Shown here one piece after another: positions 4,824-39,622 of a stretch of 47,728 nt of DNA (positions within the stretch are counted from its first letter, which is position 1; each line of letters begins with the position of its first letter). Position numbers and translations under genes: made by a program. The notes beneath the pieces are model-generated. The model had not been told where the DNA came from and did no database searches. It saw nothing but the letters and a program-made list of their open reading frames with translations. Origin of the DNA: Clostridia bacterium (GTDB lineage: Bacteria > Bacillota > Clostridia > Lachnospirales > JAKSVV01); contig JAKSVV010000002.1 in assembly GCA_024407775.1 (NCBI GenBank), positions 1 to 47,728 on the forward strand, in the 5' to 3' direction.

Positions 4824-5231
4824 TCATTTACAATAAGAATCATGGTCTAGTGAATTGAACCCTCCATTTTCTGGCGGATCTTTACTGACTTTGTCCATAA
4901 CGGACCTAACATATTCGCTGAATTTTACATCATCCTTTAAATCCGGGTGATTCATATAGATTTCATTAAAGTACTTTCTTGCAAAACATCTGACTTCGTT
5001 TATCGGAACGAATGTATATTTATAATTTGATAAACATATATCAGGTCTTGAAATTATTACTTTTCCAGTATCTATAACATGCGCATATACAACAACGCTT
5101 TGAGAACGATCTCTCACAATTGATGTAAACACCTTTGCCATAACGAATTTGTCTTTATAAATCAGATCCACTACATTGCCTTTAAGTAAATCAAAGGCGT
5201 CAAATACAAAAACAGTTGTCCCGTTTTTCAT
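4824..5231 (-). CDS. hypothetical protein (135 aa)
   Basis: ATG at 5231 preceded by GGAGGA (MKNGTTVFVFDAFDLLKG...); the track ORF extends to 5255. No family recognised. Confidence 0.55.
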   Translation of the reverse strand: MKNGTTVFVFDAFDLLKGNVVDLIYKDKFVMAKVFTSIVRDRSQSVVVYAHVIDTGKVIISRPDICLSNYKYTFVPINEVRCFARKYFNEIYMNHPDLKDDVKFSEYVRSVMDKVSKDPPENGGFNSLDHDSYCK

Positions 5232-5308
5232 AGCAAATCCTCCAATTGACTGCAAAAAAATATTAACTTTTAACTAATACACTATGGTTAGTGCAAGAAT
5301 ATACGCAA

Positions 5309-6833: not shown

Positions 6834-8714
6834 TTAATAGAATAAATAATTGCTTACTATCATTCCTACTTTCACAAATGTCATCTTAATTATTTGTAAT
6901 TTAGTCATATCAAATTTATATGATGATTTATTTTTTTCATCAATATAAGTATTAATTTCTTCTATCATCTCTTCTTTATCTTGATCAATATTCTCATCTT
7001 TTATTTTTATAGTAAACACTTTTCCTATGTTTTTCTTATTTGTTCTCATACTATTAAATCTATGAGGTCTTATTTCAAAGACTAATTCTTTACTATTTAA
7101 ATTCATGTTATCAGTATCTTTTAATTCTTCTTCAAGCAAGTCGCAAATATTTACTGTAACTTCATATCTATTTAAAGTTAATTTTTTAATTCCAGTTATC
7201 TCACCATAATTTAAAATTATATCATCTCTTGTTAAATCTCTATCTGCATTTTCTGAGAATGTTACACTATAAATTATATTCATAGATACTGATGAGCCAA
7301 AATCATCTATTGTCTTATCTTCAGTATCATGTGCTTGCACTGTTACATTAAATCCTTCATTATCAATATATGTTGTATTTGTTTTATTATATTCATCGAT
7401 AACTTCTTGTGGTACTTTTAATTCATGTTGATATAAATCTGTAAGTGATCCTTTTGATAAATCTAATTTTACAACTTCAATGTTTGATAAAGCCATATCA
7501 TTTCTTTGAACTCTATATTTAAATGTCTTAACTTTTGAATAAGAATAATCATCTTTTGCATCAAGTTTTAATGCTATTTGTTTTGATGCAAGTTTATTCT
7601 TTTCACCAGGTTTATTTTTTGCTGTAATATATAATTTTATATAACCACTATTAACTTTAATTTCTTCATCACTATATAAATTAATTTCTATTTCTTGTCC
7701 ATATCTAAATGTATTATTATTTGATGTTATTTTTGTTAAAGTTGGAAGTGATGTATCTTTTATTATACCAATCTTAGAAACAATTGAGTTATAACCATCA
7801 GAAATATTTTTATCTTCTTTTACGATATAATTTTCTAATAATTTTTTATCATTATCATTGCTTAGTCTTACATTTTTAAATGATACATCAAGCAATGTAT
7901 TATAATTTTTTATATCACAGTTAGCAATATATGCATCTACTCTTTCATTATTTTTAGCTGCGCTTATCTTAGTGAATTTTGCATCATCATATTCAAATAA
8001 TATTTCATCATTATTATTTTTATAATATAAATTAATACTATTTGCATCATTAAGACATGATGCATTACCATCTCTTTCTTTTGATACTAAGTTATTATTA
8101 TCTTTATTTATGTAATAATAATCAATATTATTTTCATCTCTTGCTGTTAATTTATTAAGATCAATTGTATGAGGTAGAACGCTAAATGAAATTAATTTTA
8201 CTCCACTAAATTCTCCTATACCTGTTATCTTTATATAATGTGTTCCAGAGTTTTTTAAAGAACCATTTCTATCTCCAAGATAATCTACTTTATAATCGAT
8301 ATTTCTTCTTAATAAAATTCCTTTATCAGGATTGATATTTCTATCAGAATAATCTCCATAATCGCTAAATAATAATTCATTAATATAATTTGGATTGTTG
8401 TAATATACATTAACATATGGTTTTATATCACGTGCTGTATATTCATAATTTGAAATATTAGATACATTAAAGTATGAAGAAAAATATCCATCCATACTCT
8501 TTGGATTTAAATTTAATTCTTCACTATTTTTTGATGTATTAAAAATATTTTTATCAAATGCTTTTATATCATTACTTAATAATCCAATTGAAAATACAAT
8601 TATCAATGCTATGCAAGAAATAAATTTAGACATGCAAAAAGAATGGCTATCACTAGTCATTTTAAAAAATTTTTTACTCTCATAATTATTTTTTCTAACT
8701 AAGAATTTTTTCAT
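6834..8714 (-). CDS. large Asn/Asp/Lys-rich secreted or membrane-anchored protein, function unknown
   Basis: ATG at 8714 with an AGAGG RBS; the track ORF extends to 8798. Hydrophobic signal/anchor ISCIALIIVFSIGLL, followed by about 560 aa of low-GC, N/K/D/Y-rich sequence with no recognisable catalytic motif. Confidence 0.6.
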   Translation of the reverse strand: MKKFLVRKNNYESKKFFKMTSDSHSFCMSKFISCIALIIVFSIGLLSNDIKAFDKNIFNTSKNSEELNLNPKSMDGYFSSYFNVSNISNYEYTARDIKPYVNVYYNNPNYINELLFSDYGDYSDRNINPDKGILLRRNIDYKVDYLGDRNGSLKNSGTHYIKITGIGEFSGVKLISFSVLPHTIDLNKLTARDENNIDYYYINKDNNNLVSKERDGNASCLNDANSINLYYKNNNDEILFEYDDAKFTKISAAKNNERVDAYIANCDIKNYNTLLDVSFKNVRLSNDNDKKLLENYIVKEDKNISDGYNSIVSKIGIIKDTSLPTLTKITSNNNTFRYGQEIEINLYSDEEIKVNSGYIKLYITAKNKPGEKNKLASKQIALKLDAKDDYSYSKVKTFKYRVQRNDMALSNIEVVKLDLSKGSLTDLYQHELKVPQEVIDEYNKTNTTYIDNEGFNVTVQAHDTEDKTIDDFGSSVSMNIIYSVTFSENADRDLTRDDIILNYGEITGIKKLTLNRYEVTVNICDLLEEELKDTDNMNLNSKELVFEIRPHRFNSMRTNKKNIGKVFTIKIKDENIDQDKEEMIEEINTYIDEKNKSSYKFDMTKLQIIKMTFVKVGMIVSNYLFY

Positions 8715-8828
8715 AATTAGACCTCTAAAAAATTCTTGCATTAATAAGATAATACATCTTAATATAAGTATCGTCTTACTATAAAAAAAATATATCATTT
8801 ATACTGAAAAAATCAAGTTTTTTTAAAC

Positions 8829-12521: not shown

Positions 12522-13391
12522 TTATAATTCTTCTTGATTTATATTTACAAATCCTCTTCCTACAACTTCATTTGCTGTACATGAAATTATAAAAGAATCT
12601 TCATCAATTTTTTGAACTATTTTTTTGATAACAGGTACTTCTTTTTTATTACAAGCACACATTAAAACTTTTTTATTATCCTTAGAGTACATCCCTGTTC
12701 CTTCAAGAGCAGTTACTCCTCTACTTAATTTTGATAAAATTTCATTTGTAATTTCATCATATTTATTTGAAATAATATATACAACTTTTCCAAAACGAGT
12801 ACCAAGTGCAACGATATCAGAAATTTTATAACAAACATATATTGCAAGAATTGCATATAATCCTTTTTGTACTCCAAAGAAATATGCACCAAGAACTACT
12901 ATTGTAGATTCAATAATTGTAAGTAATGTTCCAAGTGTTGCATATGGTTTAAAGTGTTTAATAATTATTGCAACAATATCTGTTCCTCCAGTTGTGCCTA
13001 AACCTTTAAATACTAATCCATTTCCAACACCAGAAATAATTCCTCCATATAATGCAATTAAAAATAAATCATTATCATTAATTACTTCACTAAAGAAATT
13101 TAGATCAATATTTTCAATTGCTAAAAACATTGATAAAGCAAGTGTGCCATAAATTGTTCTTATACCAACTTTTTTACCATCAAGCATTATTGCTATAATT
13201 AATAATGGTAAATTTATTGCTAAGTTTGTAACCCATAATGGAATGTTAGTAAAATATTTAACCATGATACAAATACTAGTACAGCCGCCAGCAATAAGTT
13301 CAACTTTATCAAACAAAAATGCATAAGCAACTGCTAATAAAAATGCTCCAACAGTTATATAAATATAATCAAGAATTGTATTCTTATTCAT
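12522..13391 (-). CDS. YitT family membrane protein (DUF2179 C-terminal domain)
   Basis: Multi-TM N-terminus with GLGTTGGTDIVAIII. C-terminal soluble domain SRGVTALEGTGMYS...IISCTANEVVGRGF. The likely start at 13391 (GAGG RBS) overlaps the scpB stop. Confidence 0.85.
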   Translation of the reverse strand: MNKNTILDYIYITVGAFLLAVAYAFLFDKVELIAGGCTSICIMVKYFTNIPLWVTNLAINLPLLIIAIMLDGKKVGIRTIYGTLALSMFLAIENIDLNFFSEVINDNDLFLIALYGGIISGVGNGLVFKGLGTTGGTDIVAIIIKHFKPYATLGTLLTIIESTIVVLGAYFFGVQKGLYAILAIYVCYKISDIVALGTRFGKVVYIISNKYDEITNEILSKLSRGVTALEGTGMYSKDNKKVLMCACNKKEVPVIKKIVQKIDEDSFIISCTANEVVGRGFVNINQEEL

Positions 13392-14340
13392 CTTCACCCT
13401 CATCTTCTATATCTTCATCTTCATCCCAGTCTTCATCATCGTCATCCCAATCATCATCGTCTTCATCATCTTCTTCAGTATATGAATCCCAATCAATATG
13501 ATCTATATCAAATTCTTTTTCTTCTTCATCAAGATTAACATCTTCGATTACTTCTTCACTATTATCTTCTGCTGTTTCAGATTTTTCTTCAGAATTATTT
13601 TCTCCATCAACTTTTTCTTCACTAGAATTTTCTTCTTGATTTTCATCTTGATTTTCTTCTTGATTTTCTTCTTGCGATTCTTCTTTCTTAGGTGGATTTT
13701 CTTTTAATTCTTTTGCAAGTTCTTCAGCAGCTGTAATAGCCATTGAGATTTCTTCTGAAGGTTCTTTTTCACCTTGTTCTTTTAATCTAATTAATTCTTG
13801 GTCTATGTTATCATTTGTGATTTGTCTTTGTTCAGCAACTTCAGGTAAATCTTCTAAGTTTTGTAATCCAAAATACATTAGGAATTTATCACTTGTTCCA
13901 AATAAAATTGGTCTACCAATTTTATCAGCTCTTCCTACTTCACAAATTAATTCATATTCTAATAATTTATTTACAATATAATCAGATTTAACTCCTCTTA
14001 TATTTTCTATTTCTAATTTAGTAATAGGTTGTTTATATGCAATAATAGCAAGTGTTTCCAGCATAGATGCACTTATTCTTGGTTTTTCAAGTTCAGCATT
14101 TGCTTTAGTTAAATATCCAAAAATATTTTGTTTAGTAACAAGTTGAAATTTATTATCAAATTTAATAATTTTAATTCCTCTTGTTTCATCTTCTTCATAC
14201 ATCTTTATTAAATCATCCATGATTTGTTTTGCTTCATCAACTGTTTTTTCAAGTGCTGTTGCAATTCCTTTAATATTTACAGGATCATTAGATACGAATA
14301 ACATACCTTCAATGATTCTATACATTTCTTCATTACTCAT
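13384..14340 (-). CDS. scpB: segregation and condensation protein B with ~130-aa acidic C-terminal tail
   Basis: N-terminal ~190 aa are ScpB-like (IIEGMLFVSNDPVNIKGIA, LETLAIIAYKQPITKLEIENIRGV, GRPILFGTSDKFLMYFGL). The rest is E/D/N-rich and ends in EEDDEDDDDWDDDDEDWDEDEDIEDEGEDE. Confidence 0.9.
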   Translation of the reverse strand: MSNEEMYRIIEGMLFVSNDPVNIKGIATALEKTVDEAKQIMDDLIKMYEEDETRGIKIIKFDNKFQLVTKQNIFGYLTKANAELEKPRISASMLETLAIIAYKQPITKLEIENIRGVKSDYIVNKLLEYELICEVGRADKIGRPILFGTSDKFLMYFGLQNLEDLPEVAEQRQITNDNIDQELIRLKEQGEKEPSEEISMAITAAEELAKELKENPPKKEESQEENQEENQDENQEENSSEEKVDGENNSEEKSETAEDNSEEVIEDVNLDEEEKEFDIDHIDWDSYTEEDDEDDDDWDDDDEDWDEDEDIEDEGEDE

Positions 14341-14352
14341 TTAATTTACCTC

Positions 14353-15306
14353 TTAGTTGTTGTCATTATTTTCGTTATTTGTTTCTTCGTTTTTTTCTTC
14401 GTCTTGTTCTTTTTGTTTTTCTATTTGTTCTGCTAATTCATTTTCTAATTTATTTTCAAGTTCTTCTAATTCTTCAGGTGTTTTTATTTCATCAATTCTA
14501 TCAACATTGATATCCATATCTGCACTTTCAAAATCAATTCCCTCATCAAACTCATCAGCTTTTTCAATATTAATTTCACCAAAGATTTCATCTTGTGTTA
14601 CTTTTAATTTTTTCATTTTAATCATTTCAAGAAGTGCAAGGAATGTCATAACCTTTTCCATCTTATCTTCACTATCTTCAAATAATTCACTAAATTTTAC
14701 GTTATCAAAATTTGATAATCTATCATAGATATGAGTCATTTGCATTTCAACTGTAAAGACTCTTTTCTTTCTTACTGTTTCTTCAATATGATGAGCTGTT
14801 TCTTTATCATCAGGTTTTTCTTCAGGTTTTCTTTCTTGTTTCATAATTTTTAAGAATGCTTGAGTTAATACATCCATGTTTACACCTTCAAGGAATGTAT
14901 CATAATCTATGCTTTCTTTATATTCTTGTAAGATTTTTTGATTACCTTTGAATGCAATGTCACCAGATTCTTCTTCCATAGCTCTTAGTTCTTCACAAAC
15001 ATCTTTGAAACGTTTGTATTCTAAAAGTCTTGTAACAAGTTCTAGTCTTGGGTCAATTTCTTCATCATTTTCATCTTTTTCAAGTGGTAATAACATCTTA
15101 GATTTAATCTTAAGAAGTGTTGCTGCCATGATTAAAAATTCCCCTATGTTATCGATATCTTTTTCTTCCATAGCTTCAACTTCTTTAACATATTCTGATG
15201 CAATGAAAGCCATTGGGATATCGTAAATATCAATCTTATGTTTTTCTATTAAACTATATAATAAATCAAATGGTCCTTCGAAGACCTCTAGTTTTACGTT
15301 TAACAT
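14353..15306 (-). CDS. scpA: segregation and condensation protein A (kleisin) with acidic C-terminal extension
   Basis: LEVFEGPFDLLYSLIEKHKIDIYDIPMAFI plus ATLLKIKSKMLLP. The C-terminal ~70 aa are E/D/N/K-rich. Confidence 0.9.
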   Translation of the reverse strand: MLNVKLEVFEGPFDLLYSLIEKHKIDIYDIPMAFIASEYVKEVEAMEEKDIDNIGEFLIMAATLLKIKSKMLLPLEKDENDEEIDPRLELVTRLLEYKRFKDVCEELRAMEEESGDIAFKGNQKILQEYKESIDYDTFLEGVNMDVLTQAFLKIMKQERKPEEKPDDKETAHHIEETVRKKRVFTVEMQMTHIYDRLSNFDNVKFSELFEDSEDKMEKVMTFLALLEMIKMKKLKVTQDEIFGEINIEKADEFDEGIDFESADMDINVDRIDEIKTPEELEELENKLENELAEQIEKQKEQDEEKNEETNNENNDNN

Positions 15307-19043: not shown

Positions 19044-19069
19044 TAAAAAAGAAGCTCTTATAGAGCTTC
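19044..19069 (-). terminator. terminator overlapping the stop of the 285-aa orphan gene
   Basis: Stem GAAGCTCT / AGAGCTTC with a T-run on the minus strand. The stop codon at 19058-19060 sits in the loop. Confidence 0.65.
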
Positions 19070-19915
19070 TACTATTTGCATTATATTAAATATTTCATTC
19101 ATACATCTATCTACTACTTGGTCCTTTAGTTCCTCGCTTGGTGATGCATCAAAACCTTCTTGCTTGTTATAGCATTCAGTTTGACCGTTTTCACCGCCAC
19201 TTCTTACAAATCTAACCATACCACAACCATCTTGTGATTCATAGTCTAGATATAATTCTATCATAGTTCCATCAGATAGAATGCTTGCTACTCTTCTATG
19301 GTAGTAACCTTTGTTTTCAAGTTGTACCTTAATAATTTGAGCTGTACTTGTATCGTTTTCATAGATCTTATCAAGGATCTTATTGATAAATACATCGTTT
19401 GTAAGCCCGTTATAATGAACTCCATCAAGTCTCATATAATGATTGTGGAATGAAAATTCGATGTTTACAAATCTAAAGTTTTCTAAAACATTACTCTTTA
19501 CGCAAGTTGTTTCCTTAATTTCATTATATGCCCAGTCTTTAAGTTCCTTAAATTCATCATCTGTAATGATTCCATAAGTTTGAGCTATTTCTATATCTTC
19601 TTCAATATCCTTGAATATTTCTATTGTTGATGATTCATAATATTTGTATTCTGGAGTTAAAACAAGTTCATTTAATGTATCTTCAATGTTCTTTGTAATG
19701 TCACTTCTCTTGTCTTCACTTATTGGTTCTAGAGAATTATATAGTTTATAATATAGTTCCATAAGTTTTATAGTTACATTGTTCCAAAGAATTGCATCGG
19801 CTAAAAACTCGCTCTTTACTAAAGGTAAATTAATATTAGCGTCGTCTTCAACTAGATCAAATAAGCTTTCAGTTTTATTAATATACTCCATGTTTCTTTC
19901 ATTTACGTTAGTCAT
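19058..19915 (-). CDS. hypothetical cytoplasmic protein (285 aa), orphan
   Basis: Clean ORF, GC-richer than neighbouring core genes. Acidic helical N-terminal half and a mixed C-terminal half (HNHYMRLDGVHYNGL..., GCGMVRFVRSGGENGQTECY). No family recognised. Confidence 0.6.
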   Translation of the reverse strand: MTNVNERNMEYINKTESLFDLVEDDANINLPLVKSEFLADAILWNNVTIKLMELYYKLYNSLEPISEDKRSDITKNIEDTLNELVLTPEYKYYESSTIEIFKDIEEDIEIAQTYGIITDDEFKELKDWAYNEIKETTCVKSNVLENFRFVNIEFSFHNHYMRLDGVHYNGLTNDVFINKILDKIYENDTSTAQIIKVQLENKGYYHRRVASILSDGTMIELYLDYESQDGCGMVRFVRSGGENGQTECYNKQEGFDASPSEELKDQVVDRCMNEIFNIMQIVEAL

Positions 19916-20022: not shown

Positions 20023-21225
20023 TTAATCATTTAGTAGTTCTACCCATTCACTAGTTATATCCGGATTCTCGGATACAGCCTTATCATTTGTTGAATAAAT
20101 CGAATATCTAACCTTAACGCTTTCAAGTTCATAAGCTTCATCAATGCTAATATTACCGAGATAACACTCACATGTGCCATCATAGCGAATATTGTTAATC
20201 TTATCAAAGCATACTCTATTTCCGTTTACAAATACTTCAATGTAAACATTAGAACCTGTCTTTGCATTAATAACATCAATAGCTTCATCCTTTGAAACAT
20301 TAAGATTTAATAATGCAGTCTTGCAATCTGAATCGGTATAATATCTAAGTCCATCAATCTTGCACTTTGGAGCTGCAAGAGATTCTGGAAGAGGATTTGA
20401 TTCAACATCACGGCCGCATTTAACAATGTTAGTCCAGCCAGAATAATAGACCTTACCTGATCTTGTATCTGTAATCATATATCTTGCCTTAGCACTAAAC
20501 TGATTATTTGCAACATCAAGATAAACATCACGATAATCTCCATCTTCTTCTATGATGTATGAATCCTTCAAATAGTTGTACTCATCATCAGTAAGACTAT
20601 ATGAATCAACAAACATATAAAATAGTTCAGACTGTAAGCCTCTTGCTGGATAAGAAGTTGATGTAAGTAATGAATCAAATCCATAACTAAATCTTTCTTC
20701 CTTATCATTAAGCTGATAACTAACTTCGGTTGTTACCTGATATAAAGAACCATACTCATCATGTGCTAGCATAAGTGAAATAACATCATTAGTATATGAA
20801 TGTCCATATAAAATTCTATAACACTTGCCATCATAATAGTCTGGTGTCAAATAAAAGTTCTTTGGTGCATATAAATTTTGAAGCAAAGCATCATAATTAT
20901 CAGCAGATATTACAACCTTCTGATTGCTAAAGTATGAATTGAGTTCATCAAGTTTATCAAGAATCTCATTGTTTCTTTCTAAAGCCGAATCTAATTTACT
21001 TTCTATCTCACTAATTGATGCATCAATTTCAGAATTTAATTCATCAATTCTTTTATCCTGCTCTTCTAAAATATTAGCTGATTCTGTTTGATATTTTTCT
21101 ATATCATCAAGTTTAGAATCAAAAATTCTAAAACAGCTAATCATAGCAGCAGTAAAAGCAATTAACATTGTAAGTAATATAAAAGTATCCTTATGCCTTA
21201 ATACAAAACTTATAATTTTTTTCAT
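20023..21225 (-). CDS. hypothetical N-terminally anchored protein with coiled-coil stalk (400 aa), orphan
   Basis: ATG at 21225; the track start at 21231 is TTG. TM anchor FILLTMLIAFTAAMISCF, then a coiled-coil-like segment (DIEKYQTESANILEEQDKRIDELNSEIDASISEIESKLDSALERNNEILDKLDEL), then a ~290-aa Cys-containing extracytoplasmic domain. No family recognised. Confidence 0.6.
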   Translation of the reverse strand: MKKIISFVLRHKDTFILLTMLIAFTAAMISCFRIFDSKLDDIEKYQTESANILEEQDKRIDELNSEIDASISEIESKLDSALERNNEILDKLDELNSYFSNQKVVISADNYDALLQNLYAPKNFYLTPDYYDGKCYRILYGHSYTNDVISLMLAHDEYGSLYQVTTEVSYQLNDKEERFSYGFDSLLTSTSYPARGLQSELFYMFVDSYSLTDDEYNYLKDSYIIEEDGDYRDVYLDVANNQFSAKARYMITDTRSGKVYYSGWTNIVKCGRDVESNPLPESLAAPKCKIDGLRYYTDSDCKTALLNLNVSKDEAIDVINAKTGSNVYIEVFVNGNRVCFDKINNIRYDGTCECYLGNISIDEAYELESVKVRYSIYSTNDKAVSENPDITSEWVELLND

Positions 21226-21323
21226 AATCAATTACCTCATAAAAAAAGGGTCAATACGTTACTAGTAGAACTGATTAATATTAATTTATAAATAGTATTT
21301 CTAATACCAAATGATTAAGCATG

Positions 21324-30961: not shown

Positions 30962-31190
30962 AAATTAAAGTAAATATTATGCATTGAAAAAAGACCTAGT
31001 AGTATTAATCTAGAGAGAAACTGGTTGGTGAAAAGTTTCAAATAAAATACGAATTACACTTTTAGAGCATGACGAAAGTCCGCTTGTAGCGTTAAAACTT
31101 AATGAGTTAAAGATATTAATCTTTTTAAATATAAGGTGGTACCACGATATTGTCGTCCTTTTAGCATATGTTGCTATAAGGATTTTTTTA
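30962..31190 (+). promoter_or_regulatory. T-box riboswitch leader, tyrosine specifier (UAC)
   Basis: Stem I elements AGTA, AGAGAGA and GGTTGGTGAAA. Candidate specifier region AAAATACGAA with UAC. Conserved T-box AATATAAGGTGGTACCACG. Terminator TCCTTTTAGCA / TGCTATAAGGA followed by TTTTTTT, directly upstream of tyrS. Confidence 0.88.
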
Positions 31191-31231: not shown

Positions 31232-32467
31232 ATGGAAGAAAAGAAAAATGTTTTCGACGTTTTAAAAGAACGTGGTTACATTGCACAAACAAGTAACGAA
31301 GAAGAAATTAGAAAACAATTAGGTGAAGGTAGTGTTACTATGTATTGTGGATATGATCCAACAGGTGATTCATTACATATAGGACACTTCTTAACATTAA
31401 TGGCAGCTCACTACTTACAAGAAGCTGGACATAAAATCATTACATTAGTTGGTGGAGGTACTGCTTCTATTGGTGACCCATCAGGAAAAAATGATATGAG
31501 AAAAATGTTAACTAGAGAAGAATTAGCACACAATGCAGAAAGTTTAAAGAAACAAATTTCAAAATTCTTAGACTACACAGATGATAAAGCTATCATGGTA
31601 GATAATGCAGATTGGTTATTCAAATTAGAATTCCTACCATTCTTAAGAGATATTGCAGTAACATTTTCAGTAAATAAAATGTTAACAGCTGAATGTTATA
31701 AATCAAGAATGGAACAAGGACTTACTCTTCTTGAATTTTGTTATATGCCAATGCAAAGTTATGACTTCTTAGAATTAAATAGAAAATATAATTGTACAAT
31801 GGAATTCGGTGGAGACGATCAATGGTCAAACATGATTGGTGGTATCGAATTAATTCGTAAAAAAGAAAGAAAAGATGTTAATGTATTTACATTCAACTTA
31901 CTAACAACTAGTGATGGTAAGAAAATGGGTAAAACAGAAAAAGGAGCTCTATTCTTAGATCCAGCAAAAACAACACCTTACGAATTCTATCAATATTTTA
32001 GAAACGTACAAGATGCTGACGTAAGAAAATGTTTATGCTTATTAACATTCTTACCACTTGATGAAATTGATAAACTATGTAATGTTGAAGGTGCTGCTAT
32101 CAACCATGCAAAAGAAGTTCTTGCATACGAAACAACAAAAATTGTTCACGGTGAAGAAGAAGCTAAAAAATGTGATGAAGCAGCTAAAGCAGTTTTCTCA
32201 GGACAAGGTAATAATGAAAATATGCCAACAAAAGATTTAGATAAAACATTATTAGATGGAGAATTTGGTTTACTTGATATGTTAGTAACTACTGCTATTC
32301 TTCCTTCAAAATCAGAAGCAAGAAGATTAGTTGAACAAGGTGGAGTTTCAATCAACTCTGAAAAAGTTACTGATGTTAAAATGATGATTACAAAAGATTT
32401 ATTTAAAGATGATGAAATCATTGTTCAAAAAGGTAAAAAGAATTTCTTCAAAGTTAAATTAGTTTAA
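31232..32467 (+). CDS. tyrS: tyrosine--tRNA ligase
   Basis: HIGH motif (SLHIGHFL), KMSKS-type motif (KMGKT) and a C-terminal S4 domain ([17 protein letters not shown]). Confidence 0.95.
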
Positions 32468-35575: not shown

Positions 35576-35757
35576 TCTTACCCCCAAACCAAATTGCATA
35601 TTTATATAAAACAATTTCAAAAATTTTTATATAAACATGGTTACTTTATTATATGATATATTTTTTAAAGTGCAATAAAAAAATGTTTATTTTTTTATTT
35701 ATTTTTCAATATTTTATAATATTTACAAAAATACTATATCAATACTGATTTAGAGCA

Positions 35758-35925
35758 CTAATTATCATCTTTTTTATTGTAATTTTTATTATAATTTTCA
35801 AATGATTCTTTTCTTTTTAGCATAATACCATTAATAAATTTTCTAGTTACTCTATATAGTAAAATAAAAAGTAATATAAAAATAACTGTTCTTAATATAA
35901 TTGTCTTTAATAAAAATGAATCCAT
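35758..35925 (-). CDS. small single-pass membrane peptide (55 aa), third gene of the McrBC-like operon
   Basis: Not in the track. Hand translation gives MDSFLLKTIILRTVIFILLFILLYRVTRKFINGIMLKRKESFENYNKNYNKKDDN*. The GGAGAA RBS overlaps the stop of the upstream gene (9-nt gap). Confidence 0.4.
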   Translation of the reverse strand: MDSFLLKTIILRTVIFILLFILLYRVTRKFINGIMLKRKESFENYNKNYNKKDDN

Positions 35926-35934
35926 CTTGTTCTC

Positions 35935-37383
35935 CTAGTTAATATTTTCTTTAAGCAAATTATATATTTTGTCACAAACTAAATTGCTAGCATTTATAAA
36001 TTCATCATAACTTTTTGCATTTGTAAAAATAGCAAATGGAATTTCAAATAGTACAATATCATCTAATTCGTATCTAGCTATTGCACTATCTTGATAGAAA
36101 GCATCAACAATTTCTTTTAACTCTTCATTATCATTTACTCCCATTGGGAATACGATAACTTGATACTTAGAATCATTATCCTTAGCAATTTTTATTATAT
36201 CATCTATTTTCTTATCGACAATCTTTTTTTGTTCATATTCCATCTCACCGCCTAGATAAGAGATTTCAAAATCTCTACTATAGTCAGATAAAATCATAAC
36301 ATTATTATTTTTATAATTTATAATTGAATCATTATCATATATTTTCTTTTTATTTTTAATTTTTATTTTAGAATTATTATCTTCATAAAATTTACTGATT
36401 ATATTTTTATAAATATAATTACTCCACATTTTTTCTATATCATAAACAACTCCTTTAACTCTGGAATCATTTTCATCAAAGCATGCTCTTCCTTTTGTTT
36501 TTAAAATATTAATAGATACCTTACGTAACATTTCATATTCTTTATAAACCATATTTGAAATTTTAGTATTAGCTTGTTTTGCTAATGAATCTGTTCCAAA
36601 CTCATCTATATTAGGAAATAAATTTTTAAGTTGTAAGATATGTTTTTGCGCATCTTTATATTTATTCATTAAACATGATAAAGTTTTTTTATTATTTTTT
36701 TCATAGAATAAATGTGTTTTTAAAATTAATTTATTAACCGCATTAAGAGGTGTATATTCTCTTGTAGTATAACAAACCTTACCCTGTATACTTTGATTTT
36801 TTATAACCTGTCTTGATACATCTATTCTTCCTTTAATTTTTGTATCGTTATGTTCAAACTCATTATATTGTCTAAACATACCTTTACGAATTGCATTATT
36901 TAAACAAGAAAAATAAGTAAATAAATTAATCGTTTTAAATGTTCTGTCAATCTTATTATGAATAACATCGAGTTCAGAAGTTTCTTCATCTTCATCATCT
37001 ATTTTTTCTTCAAATAATTTACCACTAAATCCGTAATAAGATTCAAACAACATATTTAAAAAATTTTCATTATAAAGTGATGTGAATCTAGTTTTGAGTA
37101 ATAAGTTATGTACTCTTTCATCAATGTATAAAGAAAAAATACCTAAATATTTTCCTAAATAATAATCTTCATTAATATTTCTAAAAATATTTAAATCAAA
37201 TTTATTCTTATATAAAAATTCTCCATCACAATTTATAATGTTATAATTATCATCATTAATTTTATCAGTTATATATTTAGCATAGCTAGAATTTTCTTTA
37301 CTAATAACACCATTATCACTTAAGATAACGATGTTACTATGCCCACTATTAATATTTATTTCTGTTCCTTCTAGCATGCTCAT
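35935..37383 (-). CDS. McrC-like partner protein (482 aa), nuclease motif non-canonical
   Basis: The core KGRIDVSRQVIKNQSIQGKVCYTTREYTPLNAVNKLILKTHL resembles the conserved McrC (McrBC family) block. C-terminal region contains DIEKMWSNYIY ... IYDNDSII ... VMILSDYSR ... YQVIVFP. Starts 7 nt after the McrB-like stop. Confidence 0.6.
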   Translation of the reverse strand: MSMLEGTEININSGHSNIVILSDNGVISKENSSYAKYITDKINDDNYNIINCDGEFLYKNKFDLNIFRNINEDYYLGKYLGIFSLYIDERVHNLLLKTRFTSLYNENFLNMLFESYYGFSGKLFEEKIDDEDEETSELDVIHNKIDRTFKTINLFTYFSCLNNAIRKGMFRQYNEFEHNDTKIKGRIDVSRQVIKNQSIQGKVCYTTREYTPLNAVNKLILKTHLFYEKNNKKTLSCLMNKYKDAQKHILQLKNLFPNIDEFGTDSLAKQANTKISNMVYKEYEMLRKVSINILKTKGRACFDENDSRVKGVVYDIEKMWSNYIYKNIISKFYEDNNSKIKIKNKKKIYDNDSIINYKNNNVMILSDYSRDFEISYLGGEMEYEQKKIVDKKIDDIIKIAKDNDSKYQVIVFPMGVNDNEELKEIVDAFYQDSAIARYELDDIVLFEIPFAIFTNAKSYDEFINASNLVCDKIYNLLKENIN

Positions 37384-37390
37384 AATAAAC

Positions 37391-39505
37391 CTACTTATTA
37401 ATTATTTTATTCCATAGTTTTGTTTTATCGATAGTACCATGATCTATCATTTCATTAAAGAACTTTTCGAATTCTTCTTTTTTGAATTTTTCATTAAACA
37501 TTGCATTAAAAAATACTGATGCATTTTTTATATTTTCTTCTAAGTTATTATCACTAAATTGTACTTCTATATCAAAAATCTTTTTTGCATTATCTATAAA
37601 GTTCATAACTTCAGTTTCATTTTCACCTCTTAGATATTCTCTAAGTAATGATTTAACTCTATAGTTCCAAACATAATCTTTAACTTGTGCTGGTCCTTCT
37701 GCTACCATGTTTGGATTAACATCACTAAATTGACCTTGTGATATATCATAGTGAGAATTTAATCCATATTGTTCTCCATGAATATGCAAATATTTATTTA
37801 ACATACATGTACTTGATGCTAAGCTTTTTGCTAAATCATATGAGAATTTAAATGAAGGCGATACAAATGCTGTCATTAAATTATCAAAGTCTACAAAGAA
37901 TTCTTCAAAGACAAATCTTCTTCTTAATGCAAAGTCCATACTTTCTACAGATCTGTCTATGTCATTCATTGTTCCGATAATAACAACGTTTTCTGGTATA
38001 AAGAATCCATCAACGAATACATCTTCAAATTTTGCAAGTTCTCTTTTTCTATCACAATCATATGTTATTAAATTTCTATATTGTGTTTGAACTAAATTAT
38101 TTGGTCCTCTTTTATCTTTTTCAAAACAATACATAAGTTCTCCAAGAACTTTCGAAAGGTCAGCACGGTTAATTTCATCAATGATAAAGAAATATTTTTT
38201 ATTTAAATCTTTATACTTCCATCTCAAACTCTTACCATCTTCCGCTGTTTCAAATAATGTTCCCGGTATAGTATTTGTTGAATCATCACTGTTAAGTAAT
38301 ATTGTAAGTTCTTCTGGATTATATATTTTTATATTACAATCAATATGTTGTTGCATAAACTTATCAATGTTACCATCAGCAATTTGTCCCCATGTAGTTT
38401 TTTCTATCAATCTTAATGAATCATCAGTAACTATATTTTTTAATTTCATTCTCATTTCATAATTTACTTTAGGTTCATTTAAATTACAATAGTCACCATC
38501 ATAACATGACTTAATTATTTTCTTTATATATCTATTATATGTTGATTCAAAAAATTCTTTGTTGCCTAATCTTGAATCAACACCATAAATGTCTTTAATA
38601 TTTTCTTCTTCAACCCATCTACAAAATTCTTTAAAAATACCATCAACTTTTCTGAATTCAACCACTTTATCTCTTGATTCCATTGGTCTTAATCCTTCAA
38701 CGAAATCTGTGTAATCGAATGATGTATGGAATTGTACTAGTTGATAATTCTTTCCTTTAATTGCACTTACTTCTTCTTTTTTTCCATAGTACTTTGCAAT
38801 TTCTTTAGCAAGATATGTCTTACCTGTTCCAGGAGCTCCAGTAAATATAATTTGTTTAACTCCATTATCAATTAATGATTGAACTTTTTCTTTATATGAA
38901 TTAAAACTTACATTTATATTTTCTAGATTTACTGTAGCAGTTTGCTTACTACTTTCATTTTGCACTTCTTGTTTATGAATCCTAAGTGGACTAATTTCTT
39001 CGCTGACATTTTCATTTGGAATTTCAGTTTGTGTTTCAGGAATTAAATAGTCATCAAAATTAATTTCAAATAAAACATTTTGACCTTGCCACATACGAAG
39101 TGTGTTATAAAGTAAATCAACAAATGATACATCTTGATAACTCATTTGCATATAGTTATATGTACTTACACAAAAATCATATGCACTGTTATATACATTT
39201 TGATTGCATACAAATTTAATACAACATTTTTCTAACATATCATATAACTCAAAAGGAATATAATTTTGTGTGCTCATGCAAGATACTAATGTGTCAGATG
39301 AAATTTCTATTCCATTTAACATAAATATAAATGCATATTTAAGAGCATTTTCATACTTATGTTCGCTATCTAAATTATATTGAATTACATATGATTTTAT
39401 TTTAATAATATCATTTAAAGTAAGTAAATCATAACTTATAAATTCACCCGATACACTATTAAATGTATTTATTAATTCAATAAAATAATTACTTAATACG
39501 TTCAT
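37391..39505 (-). CDS. McrB-family AAA+ GTPase (704 aa) with unassigned N-terminal domain and large intra-AAA insertion
   Basis: Walker A GAPGTGKT (aa 223-230), FHTSFDYTDFVEGLRP, Walker B/McrB motif FFIIDEINRADLSKVLGEL (aa 439-457), IIGTMNDIDRS (NxxD) and ALRRRF. Confidence 0.8.
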   Translation of the reverse strand: MNVLSNYFIELINTFNSVSGEFISYDLLTLNDIIKIKSYVIQYNLDSEHKYENALKYAFIFMLNGIEISSDTLVSCMSTQNYIPFELYDMLEKCCIKFVCNQNVYNSAYDFCVSTYNYMQMSYQDVSFVDLLYNTLRMWQGQNVLFEINFDDYLIPETQTEIPNENVSEEISPLRIHKQEVQNESSKQTATVNLENINVSFNSYKEKVQSLIDNGVKQIIFTGAPGTGKTYLAKEIAKYYGKKEEVSAIKGKNYQLVQFHTSFDYTDFVEGLRPMESRDKVVEFRKVDGIFKEFCRWVEEENIKDIYGVDSRLGNKEFFESTYNRYIKKIIKSCYDGDYCNLNEPKVNYEMRMKLKNIVTDDSLRLIEKTTWGQIADGNIDKFMQQHIDCNIKIYNPEELTILLNSDDSTNTIPGTLFETAEDGKSLRWKYKDLNKKYFFIIDEINRADLSKVLGELMYCFEKDKRGPNNLVQTQYRNLITYDCDRKRELAKFEDVFVDGFFIPENVVIIGTMNDIDRSVESMDFALRRRFVFEEFFVDFDNLMTAFVSPSFKFSYDLAKSLASSTCMLNKYLHIHGEQYGLNSHYDISQGQFSDVNPNMVAEGPAQVKDYVWNYRVKSLLREYLRGENETEVMNFIDNAKKIFDIEVQFSDNNLEENIKNASVFFNAMFNEKFKKEEFEKFFNEMIDHGTIDKTKLWNKIINK

Positions 39506-39592
39506 ATACCCACCATAAAAATTTTTTTATTTCACTATTTTTGTTATCGTCATTATTTTTTTGATATTTACTAATATTTAATTATTTTTTCA

Positions 39593-39622
39593 TAAAAAAG
39601 ACGCCAATTATTTGGCGTCTTT
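39593..39622 (-). terminator. rho-independent terminator after the L,D-transpeptidase gene
   Basis: Stem AGACGCCAA / TTGGCGTCT with a TTAT loop. T-run on the minus strand. Confidence 0.85.

Follow-up and report, generated by a model that had tools for sequence, protein, structure and literature searches.

A divergent McrBC-like operon with an apparently degenerate nuclease motif and a coupled membrane peptide, maintained upstream of glgB in a small Clostridia-like clade

What might an McrBC-type machine do when its own nuclease seems to be degenerate and a membrane peptide is coupled to it? McrBC is the classic example of a GTP-dependent restriction enzyme, and it belongs to a family that recent censuses have found to be far more diverse than had been thought. 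The operon considered here lies at positions 35758–39505 on the minus strand of a 47,728-nt stretch of DNA from a Clostridia bacterium (GenBank assembly GCA_024407775.1, contig JAKSVV010000002.1; the whole stretch is hereafter the window, and the features of the operon described below are all on this strand). Its three genes, all in the same orientation, encode an McrB-family AAA+ GTPase, an McrC-family partner and a single-pass membrane peptide. An earlier reading made from the letters of the DNA (the sequence-only reading) had put the operon forward as an uncharacterised defence-type system, a description that holds in so far as the proteins are divergent, McrBC-like and assignable to no classified subtype; a role in defence is not established, and the flanking core genes and a host-like GC content at third codon positions (GC3) tell against it. 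The operon is best described as a variant within a well-known defence family and not as a new kind of system. We give an even chance to the interpretation that it is a composite, in which an McrBC-type GTP motor and sensor with a degenerate nuclease of its own is coupled to the membrane peptide.

The family is very rare, with two full-length McrB relatives and seven McrC relatives among 5.8 billion proteins, and the array McrB–McrC–(peptide)–glgB was present in all seven lineages found, in which McrC identity falls to ~35%. The recovered loci (L003, L001/L002, L004 plus L005, L006/L012, L007, L008 and L013) are each upstream of glgB, and each comprises an McrB with a family-specific C-terminal extension, an McrC, the peptide if present, and then glgB. 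L003 belongs to the same species as the window, from a 98%-identical strain; L001/L002 come from an NCBI metagenome-assembled genome (MAG) labelled 'Clostridia bacterium', L001 being in GCA_024413375.1.

The first gene of the operon (37391–39505) encodes a protein of 704 aa which, judged by its sequence, is a genuine AAA+ GTPase of the McrB type, all of its catalytic motifs being intact. It matches Pfam AAA_5 (1e-16) and the NCBIfam McrB model NF008457 (2e-33, 115.8 bits; equivalog cut-off 637), and is a member of the McrB family, not an ortholog-level equivalent of E. coli McrB. The solved McrB structures from E. coli and T. gammatolerans are matched at 2e-29 to 1e-24, the match to 6hz4 (2e-29, phmmer) falling into two stretches, residues 217–301 and 435–544. 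The Walker A motif (G223–T230, GAPGTGKT) and Walker B motif (D443/E444) are invariant among 106 aligned McrBs, as are the NxxD signature (N514-D-I-D517), which has been defined as the GTP-specificity signature of McrB GTPases (PMC11090510), and the RRRF motif at 528–531 (R528, R530 and F531). An AlphaFold2 (AF2) model of the protein, with a predicted local distance difference test (pLDDT) score of 77.6, has chains of the T. gammatolerans and E. coli McrB hexamers (6ut5, 6hz4 and 6ut6) as its top Foldseek matches, with E values of 4e-16 to 1e-13 and a TM-score, by target, of up to 0.82. Across the lineages the AAA+ core is 86–95% identical. The McrB-family identity that had been read from quoted motifs was thus well founded: all of these motifs are present, D443/E444 are invariant, and Pfam, NCBIfam and the PDB agree.

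The second gene (35935–37383) encodes a protein of 482 aa that is a bona fide McrC homologue. It scores 60 bits against Pfam PF10117 (cut-off 23.9; 2.5e-16; residues 148–350), and its AF2 model (pLDDT 76.5, predicted TM-score 0.81) matches the solved McrC chains of T. gammatolerans (6ut7_G, 6e-9; 6ut5_G, 9e-6) and E. coli (6ut6_G, 3e-5), in agreement with the McrC-like core block that the sequence-only reading had noticed. The Foldseek TM-scores are low, at 0.2–0.4, probably owing to domain orientation. Alignment with canonical relatives by hhalign gave 99.6% probability over aa 51–325 only, and the family profile found no match among PDB sequences. The best-conserved stretch, with invariant columns, is aa 168–212 ('KGRIDVSR...QGKVCYTTREY'; 36748–36882), which is predicted to form a long beta-hairpin (strands 172–178 and 201–207), at low pLDDT when modelled alone. 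By analogy with the solved complexes, we infer that this hairpin may be the finger that enters the McrB ring.

McrC departs from the canonical enzyme in its nuclease-like C-terminal domain. Pieper & Pingoud (2002), cited in PMC11037411, identified the PD...(D/E)xK motif as the catalytic centre of McrBC. At the corresponding hairpin (36280–36330; predicted strands 353–357 and 360–366) the window protein reads D352...L365-S366-D367-Y368, where the canonical relatives P0128 and P0129 read PD...LDAKY; in this alignment (A3) the acid is changed from D to L and the lysine from K to D. The first Asp (D352) is thus kept, and the second acid and the Lys of (D/E)xK are lost. The departure itself had been recognised earlier and stands, although the 'D-Y-S' given for it is the same spot one residue along, and the motif position reads L-S-D. 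What had not been seen is that the loss is family-wide. In the seven lineages the residues at the acid position are L, L, K, D, D, E, V and those at the lysine position D, E, C, S, S, K, G, so that the catalytic Lys is missing in six of seven, E-A-K being kept by the L004/L005 lineage. The replacement of the Lys and of the second acid by non-conserved residues indicates decay and not conservative replacement. The C-terminal domain is also the least conserved part of the protein, with 22–32% identity in the five more distant lineages and 56% in the closest (P0122), compared with 51–78% in the middle domain (DUF2357, with the finger). From these alignments the nuclease-like domain seems to be degenerate, with its canonical DNA-cutting motif lost. 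McrC homologues with an inactivated PD-(D/E)xK site have been described before, and it was suggested that their function has passed to associated proteins (Bell et al. 2024, PMC11090510).

In the operon, the only associated gene encodes the 55-aa peptide (35758–35925). The peptide consists of a strongly hydrophobic 17-mer (Kyte–Doolittle value 2.6) followed by a basic tail, 'RKFI..I..KRKES(F/Y)', which the positive-inside rule predicts to be cytoplasmic. It is translationally coupled to McrC, its AGGAG ribosome-binding site overlapping the TAG stop codon of mcrC. Homologous peptides of 41–72 aa are found at the same position in six of the seven lineages (L001/L002, L006/L012, L007, L008 and L013, plus the window) and share the motif (R/K)K(F/L)I..I..(K/R)R(K/R).S(F/Y). 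The coupled membrane peptide of the earlier reading is therefore a conserved element. No convincing peptide gene was found in the L004/L005 lineage, which is the one lineage keeping E-x-K. In a neighbour-joining tree of McrC, L005 and L007 are at the base; the peptide is present, and the lysine lost, in both L007 and the crown group. Type I toxin-like peptides of Firmicutes, such as TxpA, BsrG and Fst, are 40–70 aa in length and have an N-terminal transmembrane (TM) helix and a charged C-terminal tail. The window peptide resembles them, by description only, in length, TM helix and tail; unlike them it is coupled to an McrC homologue, and no antisense RNA is evident. In some lineages the interval between the peptide gene and glgB has gained further genes for membrane proteins, namely Bax1-I in L001/L002 (L001:11837–12538, L002:2583–3284) and a DUF805 gene in L007 (1659–1979).

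McrB itself carries modules not seen in canonical McrB. The orphan N-terminal domain (aa 1–155; 39041–39505) is mostly helical and acidic (net charge −11, isoelectric point (pI) 4.1), and is followed in the AF2 model by a disordered linker (aa 156–199; 38909–39040). The N-terminal region had no Pfam match at E values up to 10 and no match by sequence in the PDB, and a HMMER pass of the N-domain through 1.84 billion representative proteins returned three weak, fragmentary and spurious matches only, in keeping with the earlier remark that the N-terminal module resembles no recognised DNA-reader domain. At the sequence level, Pfam, NCBIfam, the PDB and the large library gave no relatives for aa 1–200 or for the insertion described below, and so no recognised modified-base reader such as DUF3578/ADAM, YTH, EVE, ASCH, SRA or wH. 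A winged-helix reading of the helices and strands at residues 52–99 was dropped, pLDDT there being ~55. The N-domain is the fastest-evolving part of McrB (47% identity to L001, 28% to L004). Compared with the L003 gene (118–2271), the window copy is without 13 residues (KKYFINENYENDL) after codon 9 (39479), a segment that has counterparts in L001 and L004, and all three McrB substitutions between the window and L003 fall within the first 66 residues. Being the most divergent part of the protein and holding the strain-level changes, the N-domain varies in the way that a specificity or sensor module would.

A helical insertion of ~138 aa (aa 297–434; 38204–38617) lies between helix alpha2 and the Walker B strand. 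The length of about 135 aa estimated from the sequence between Walker A and B agrees with the split of the PDB match at 301/435, which gives ~133–138 aa. Of the sequences in alignment A1, only the window McrB and the two other full-length relatives, L001 and P0002, have the insertion; at 86% and 64% conservation it surpasses the N-domain. It is predicted to be helical (pLDDT 61–81, AF2), and Pfam and PDB profile searches returned only chance-level matches. A small nuclease (HNH or GIY-YIG) within it was considered and rejected, the prediction being all-helical and those motifs absent. According to Bell et al. (2024, PMC11090510), the GTPase domains of McrB proteins often contain insertions, in which specificity probably resides; the phenomenon is therefore already known, and the particular module found here is not. 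At the other end, a three-helix C-terminal extension (aa 641–704; 37394–37585; helices 655–670, 676–688 and 694–703) is found in none of the generic McrBs of A1 and is present in L001, L004, L006, L007 and L008; McrB of L013 has only its last residues.

How these parts might work together can be proposed as follows. McrB would form a GTP-dependent hexamer, and, as happens in the McrBC of E. coli and T. gammatolerans, the McrC hairpin would plug into it and stimulate GTP hydrolysis. Recognition of the target would fall to the fast-evolving orphan N-domain, perhaps together with the conserved insertion. The output would be independent of the PD-(D/E)xK site of McrC and would run through, or be localised by, the membrane peptide, which may tether the motor to the membrane or act as a small toxin-like effector that is set free upon activation. 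The role that seems most probable is defence against invading DNA or phage in a non-canonical, possibly abortive, mode. It is tempting to go further and to suppose that the nuclease effector has been replaced by the membrane peptide, so that a foreign target triggers membrane damage or a membrane-localised action without DNA cleavage; the operon would then be a membrane-acting branch of type IV restriction, long fixed on the chromosome in one clade. We hold this joint proposal only tentatively. If output does pass through the peptide, the operon would illustrate in simple form, with three genes, how the effector of a restriction machine can be replaced.

A number of observations weigh against the composite interpretation. 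In a comparison with PADLOC-DB 2.0, McrC had no match, the peptide had chance-level matches only and McrB matched partially to the generic REase_II model (2e-13), so that neither the partner nor the peptide has a PADLOC model. A single lineage underlies the association between the peptide and loss of the nuclease motif. With its acidic character the N-domain has little resemblance to a nucleic-acid reader, although the proteome of the window is acidic as a whole. A whole-chain Foldseek search with McrB against the PDB and BFVD returned AAA+ ATPases only, the AAA+ core dominating the result. There is no defence-island context, the flanks within the window all being housekeeping genes. The mapping of the catalytic residues is a MAFFT alignment combined with predicted strands, since profile homology ends at residue 325, before the motif. 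Finally, K326 is invariant in the family and absent from the canonical relatives, D315 and D352 are nearly invariant, D352 being kept in six of seven lineages, and K326, D315 and D352 could together form a relocated active site.

This last point leads to the alternative that the operon encodes an ordinary modification-dependent type IV endonuclease, in which McrC has a rearranged site (e.g. D315/K326/D352), the orphan domain or the insertion reads the modified base, and the peptide is an accessory without a role in output. We regard this as rather unlikely. Both core proteins do belong to the McrB and McrC families, one lineage keeps E-x-K, and migration of active-site residues is known in PD-(D/E)xK nucleases. 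Variable reader domains and insertions are, moreover, typical of McrB (PMC11090510). Against an ordinary nuclease are the replacement of the canonical Lys and second acid by non-conserved residues, as in decay, and the position of the nuclease-like domain as the least conserved part of McrC; no known reader fold was detected in the Pfam, PDB and 1.84-billion-protein searches; and the co-conserved, coupled and selected peptide is left unexplained. Should the nuclease prove active through the relocated lysine, the finding would reduce to another McrBC subtype, with a reader domain that is not recognised.

The operon has an upstream boundary of its own. The intrinsic terminator of the upstream ldt gene (YkuD/SH3) at 39591–39622 (11-bp stem, 4-nt loop and T-run) is that boundary, as had been proposed: the hairpin folds at −15.3 kcal/mol (z −5.2), a stability that no shuffled sequence out of 200 reached. 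A simple terminator scan overlooked this hairpin, which was recovered by the folding energy test. Within the operon the gap between mcrB and mcrC is 7 nt, and the positions of the reading frames, this gap and the overlap of the peptide ribosome-binding site with the mcrC stop were all correctly stated in the sequence-only reading. Downstream, the supposed glgB leader could not be upheld as a boundary. In the spacer between the peptide gene and glgB (35576–35757), a riboswitch or leader was rejected on an Rfam scan that was empty at that site; reading by eye shows a perfect −10 element (TATAAT, 35648–35653) with a weak −35 element (TTGCAC, 35670–35675). The spacer differs from that of L003 by only two bases, and the TTGCAC element is also present in L013. 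No terminator was found in the spacer by the scan that overlooked the ldt hairpin.

The locus is an intact, expressed-looking operon under selection. Codon differences from L003 are 21 synonymous to 3 non-synonymous in McrB, 20 to 5 in McrC and 2 to 0 in the peptide gene, and the excess of synonymous differences indicates that all three genes are maintained by purifying selection. The degenerate nuclease motif, and the 13-aa deletion in the N-domain of the window copy, might suggest that a former restriction system is decaying here and no longer has a function. We consider this very improbable: in each of the three genes synonymous changes are in large excess over non-synonymous ones, on which ground pseudogene or relic status was rejected, the reading frames are intact in seven lineages, and the AAA+ core shows the high identity given above. 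As to composition, GC3 is 0.143 for McrB, 0.133 for McrC and 0.089 for the peptide gene, all within the window range (0.137 ± 0.039). The earlier description of the operon as more AT-rich than its flanks applies only to the total GC of McrC (0.224) and the peptide gene (0.155).

The genomic setting bears on the history of the operon. Its neighbours in the window are all core genes, encoding Mfd, ScpAB, FakA, dUTPase, ZapA, TyrRS with a T-box, GlgB, Ldt, FtsW, MraY, Mur ligase and a penicillin-binding protein (PBP), the dcw genes among them. Upstream of the array in L001 there are likewise genes for PBP, Mur ligase, MraY, FtsW and Ldt; this Ldt/FtsW side is documented in the window and L001 only. 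Identity between the window and L001 is 75% for McrB, 75% for MraY, 76% for Mur ligase, 60% for FtsW, 63% for Ldt, 87% for GlgB and 48% for McrC. GlgB homologues have identities of 99, 85, 75 and 68% and then drop straight to 65% or less, which shows that the clade is small. In L011 (GlgB 75%), the nearest relative without the system, the end of FtsW is followed by a 236-nt spacer and glgB, with no ldt and no McrBC; in L009/L010 (GlgB 68%) the neighbours around glgB are unrelated. No relatives were found among GTDB species representatives (scanned with alignment A2 of the insertion and alignment A4 of the McrC family, both by way of exact amino-acid patterns, which very divergent members could escape), nor in JGI metagenome contigs, IMG/VR viral contigs or GenBank phages; plasmids yielded only distant McrC relatives, with 25–34% identity over the finger region. 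No flanking integrase, transposase or other defence gene was found in the window, and composition and position are not island-like. Recent horizontal transfer was rejected on GC3 and synteny.

The simplest history, in view of the downstream synteny in seven lineages, the FtsW–glgB junction in L011 and the host-like GC3, is that the array was acquired once, in the ancestor of a small clade of uncultured, low-GC, Clostridia-like bacteria, and has descended vertically since. This points to an old, vertically kept accessory module, and not to a mobile island or to a housekeeping gene of the whole order. The sequence-only reading had held that conservation in strict synteny across the order, in the manner of housekeeping genes, would speak against defence; such synteny is found, but within the small clade, and the system is absent from L011 and has no relatives in the GTDB representatives.

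A setting of this kind also invites the explanation that the operon is a domesticated, non-defence motor, anchored to the membrane by the peptide and serving envelope synthesis or division (dcw, Ldt) or glycogen metabolism. In each of the seven lineages the array has a fixed place upstream of glgB, and in the two loci whose upstream side was recovered it is flanked by Ldt/FtsW and glgB; the scan showed no terminator between the peptide gene and glgB; McrB is as conserved as MraY and Mur ligase (75–76%), GC3 is host-like, there are no mobile or defence genes nearby, and the nuclease motif is degenerate. We nevertheless find domestication improbable. The closest relative outside the clade lacks the system, FtsW abutting glgB, and, as no relatives were found among the GTDB species representatives, division and glycogen synthesis do not in general require the system. 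McrC is only 37–48% identical where GlgB is 81–87% identical, the partner, N-domain and peptide diverging faster than the flanks, and the operon has its own terminator boundary upstream. We know of no housekeeping derivative of McrBC. A fully domesticated housekeeping motor is less likely than a membrane-acting branch of type IV restriction.

Annotation has made the family hard to see. In the L001 contig of GCA_024413375.1 an intact gene for a 709-aa McrB (L001:7831–9960) is absent from the table of called genes, and the adjacent McrC homologue, MCQ2978707.1, bears no label other than 'hypothetical protein'; in public annotation the family is thus effectively invisible. The next-highest scorers after the close relatives, P0003–P0015, were rejected as close family, being without the insertion. 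These proteins, of ~650–1100 aa, mostly have two McrB-type AAA+ modules in tandem, together with Pfam PF28529, and owe their high scores to the two modules.

The operon can be compared with several known systems. Like EcoKMcrBC of E. coli (PDB 6hz4, 6ut6), it has a two-gene core in the same order, an McrB AAA+ fold with Walker A, Walker B, NxxD and RRRF motifs, and an McrC fold with a ring-binding region. EcoKMcrBC has a DUF3578 5-methylcytosine (5mC) reader, whereas the window McrB has the orphan acidic helical N-domain; the 138-aa insertion, the three-helix C-extension, the L-S-D of McrC and the coupled membrane peptide are further differences. The best structural match is to T. gammatolerans McrBC (PDB 6ut3–6ut8; McrB 4e-16, McrC 6e-9), with a sequence identity to the window proteins of only ~12–22%. 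The reader of T. gammatolerans McrB is a YTH-like domain (PMC11037411), and none was detected in the window McrB; the matched structures comprise McrB and McrC chains only, without a peptide partner. A Firmicute pair of McrB-like and McrC-like proteins, YdiS/YdjA of the BsuMI system of B. subtilis (PDB 9a5m, an integrative model), is matched at 2e-8 for McrB and 3e-6 for McrC, much more weakly than McrBC proper. No methyltransferase gene, for comparison with BsuMI, was detected among the window genes scanned.

The CoCoNuT systems are also comparable. In types II and III of these the McrC homologue keeps an inactivated PD-(D/E)xK fold, and output has been proposed to occur via associated proteins (PMC11090510). 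They are like the window operon in their degenerate McrC nuclease and in having insertions within conserved domains. They differ in that their GTPases carry NxD where the window McrB carries NxxD, and in their long coiled coils and their HEPN, Hsp70-like and tandem nuclease genes, none of which is present in the window operon as judged from AF2 secondary structure and gene content; the one associated gene here is that for the small peptide. In CoCoPALM, McrB is fused to an FtsB-like TM/coiled-coil domain (PMC11090510), and an McrBC-type motor is thus likewise linked to the membrane. There, however, the membrane segment is fused to the GTPase, which is of the NxD branch, and pilus-assembly genes are present, whereas in the window the peptide is separate and small.

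The clade thus unites, in one compact operon, an intact motor, a partner with a decayed canonical nuclease motif, two orphan motor modules and a co-inherited peptide. McrBC insertions and inactivated nucleases are already known; it is the design of motor, dead nuclease and membrane peptide, together with core-like inheritance, that makes the operon a candidate for experiment. The operon also provides a clear instance of a defence-type module inherited vertically, like a gene of the core neighbourhood, and not as a mobile island.

Several features elsewhere in the window and the clade are recorded here for completeness. A T-box leader (Rfam RF00230, 96 bits) at 30975–31163 on the plus strand, upstream of the TyrRS gene (31232–32467), is ordinary. 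Minus-strand reading frames of 654, 285 and 402 aa (6834–8798, 19058–19915 and 20023–21231) had no Pfam match at E <= 0.001. Many window proteins have a pI of 4–5, and ScpB and ScpA (13384–14340 and 14353–15306, minus strand) stand out by their acidity, their net charges being −66 and −43. One of the 38 reading frames in the window, a hypothetical one at 4824–5255, ends in TGA, no real gene there has a sense TGA, and none of ~25 genes at the other clade loci ends in TGA. In L007, two genes (2–247 and 1659–1979) contain five in-frame TGA codons, one of which aligns with the invariant Trp of 'TKLWNK', so that TGA appears to encode Trp (genetic code 4) in L007. The clade seems to avoid TGA, and one branch seems to have reassigned it.

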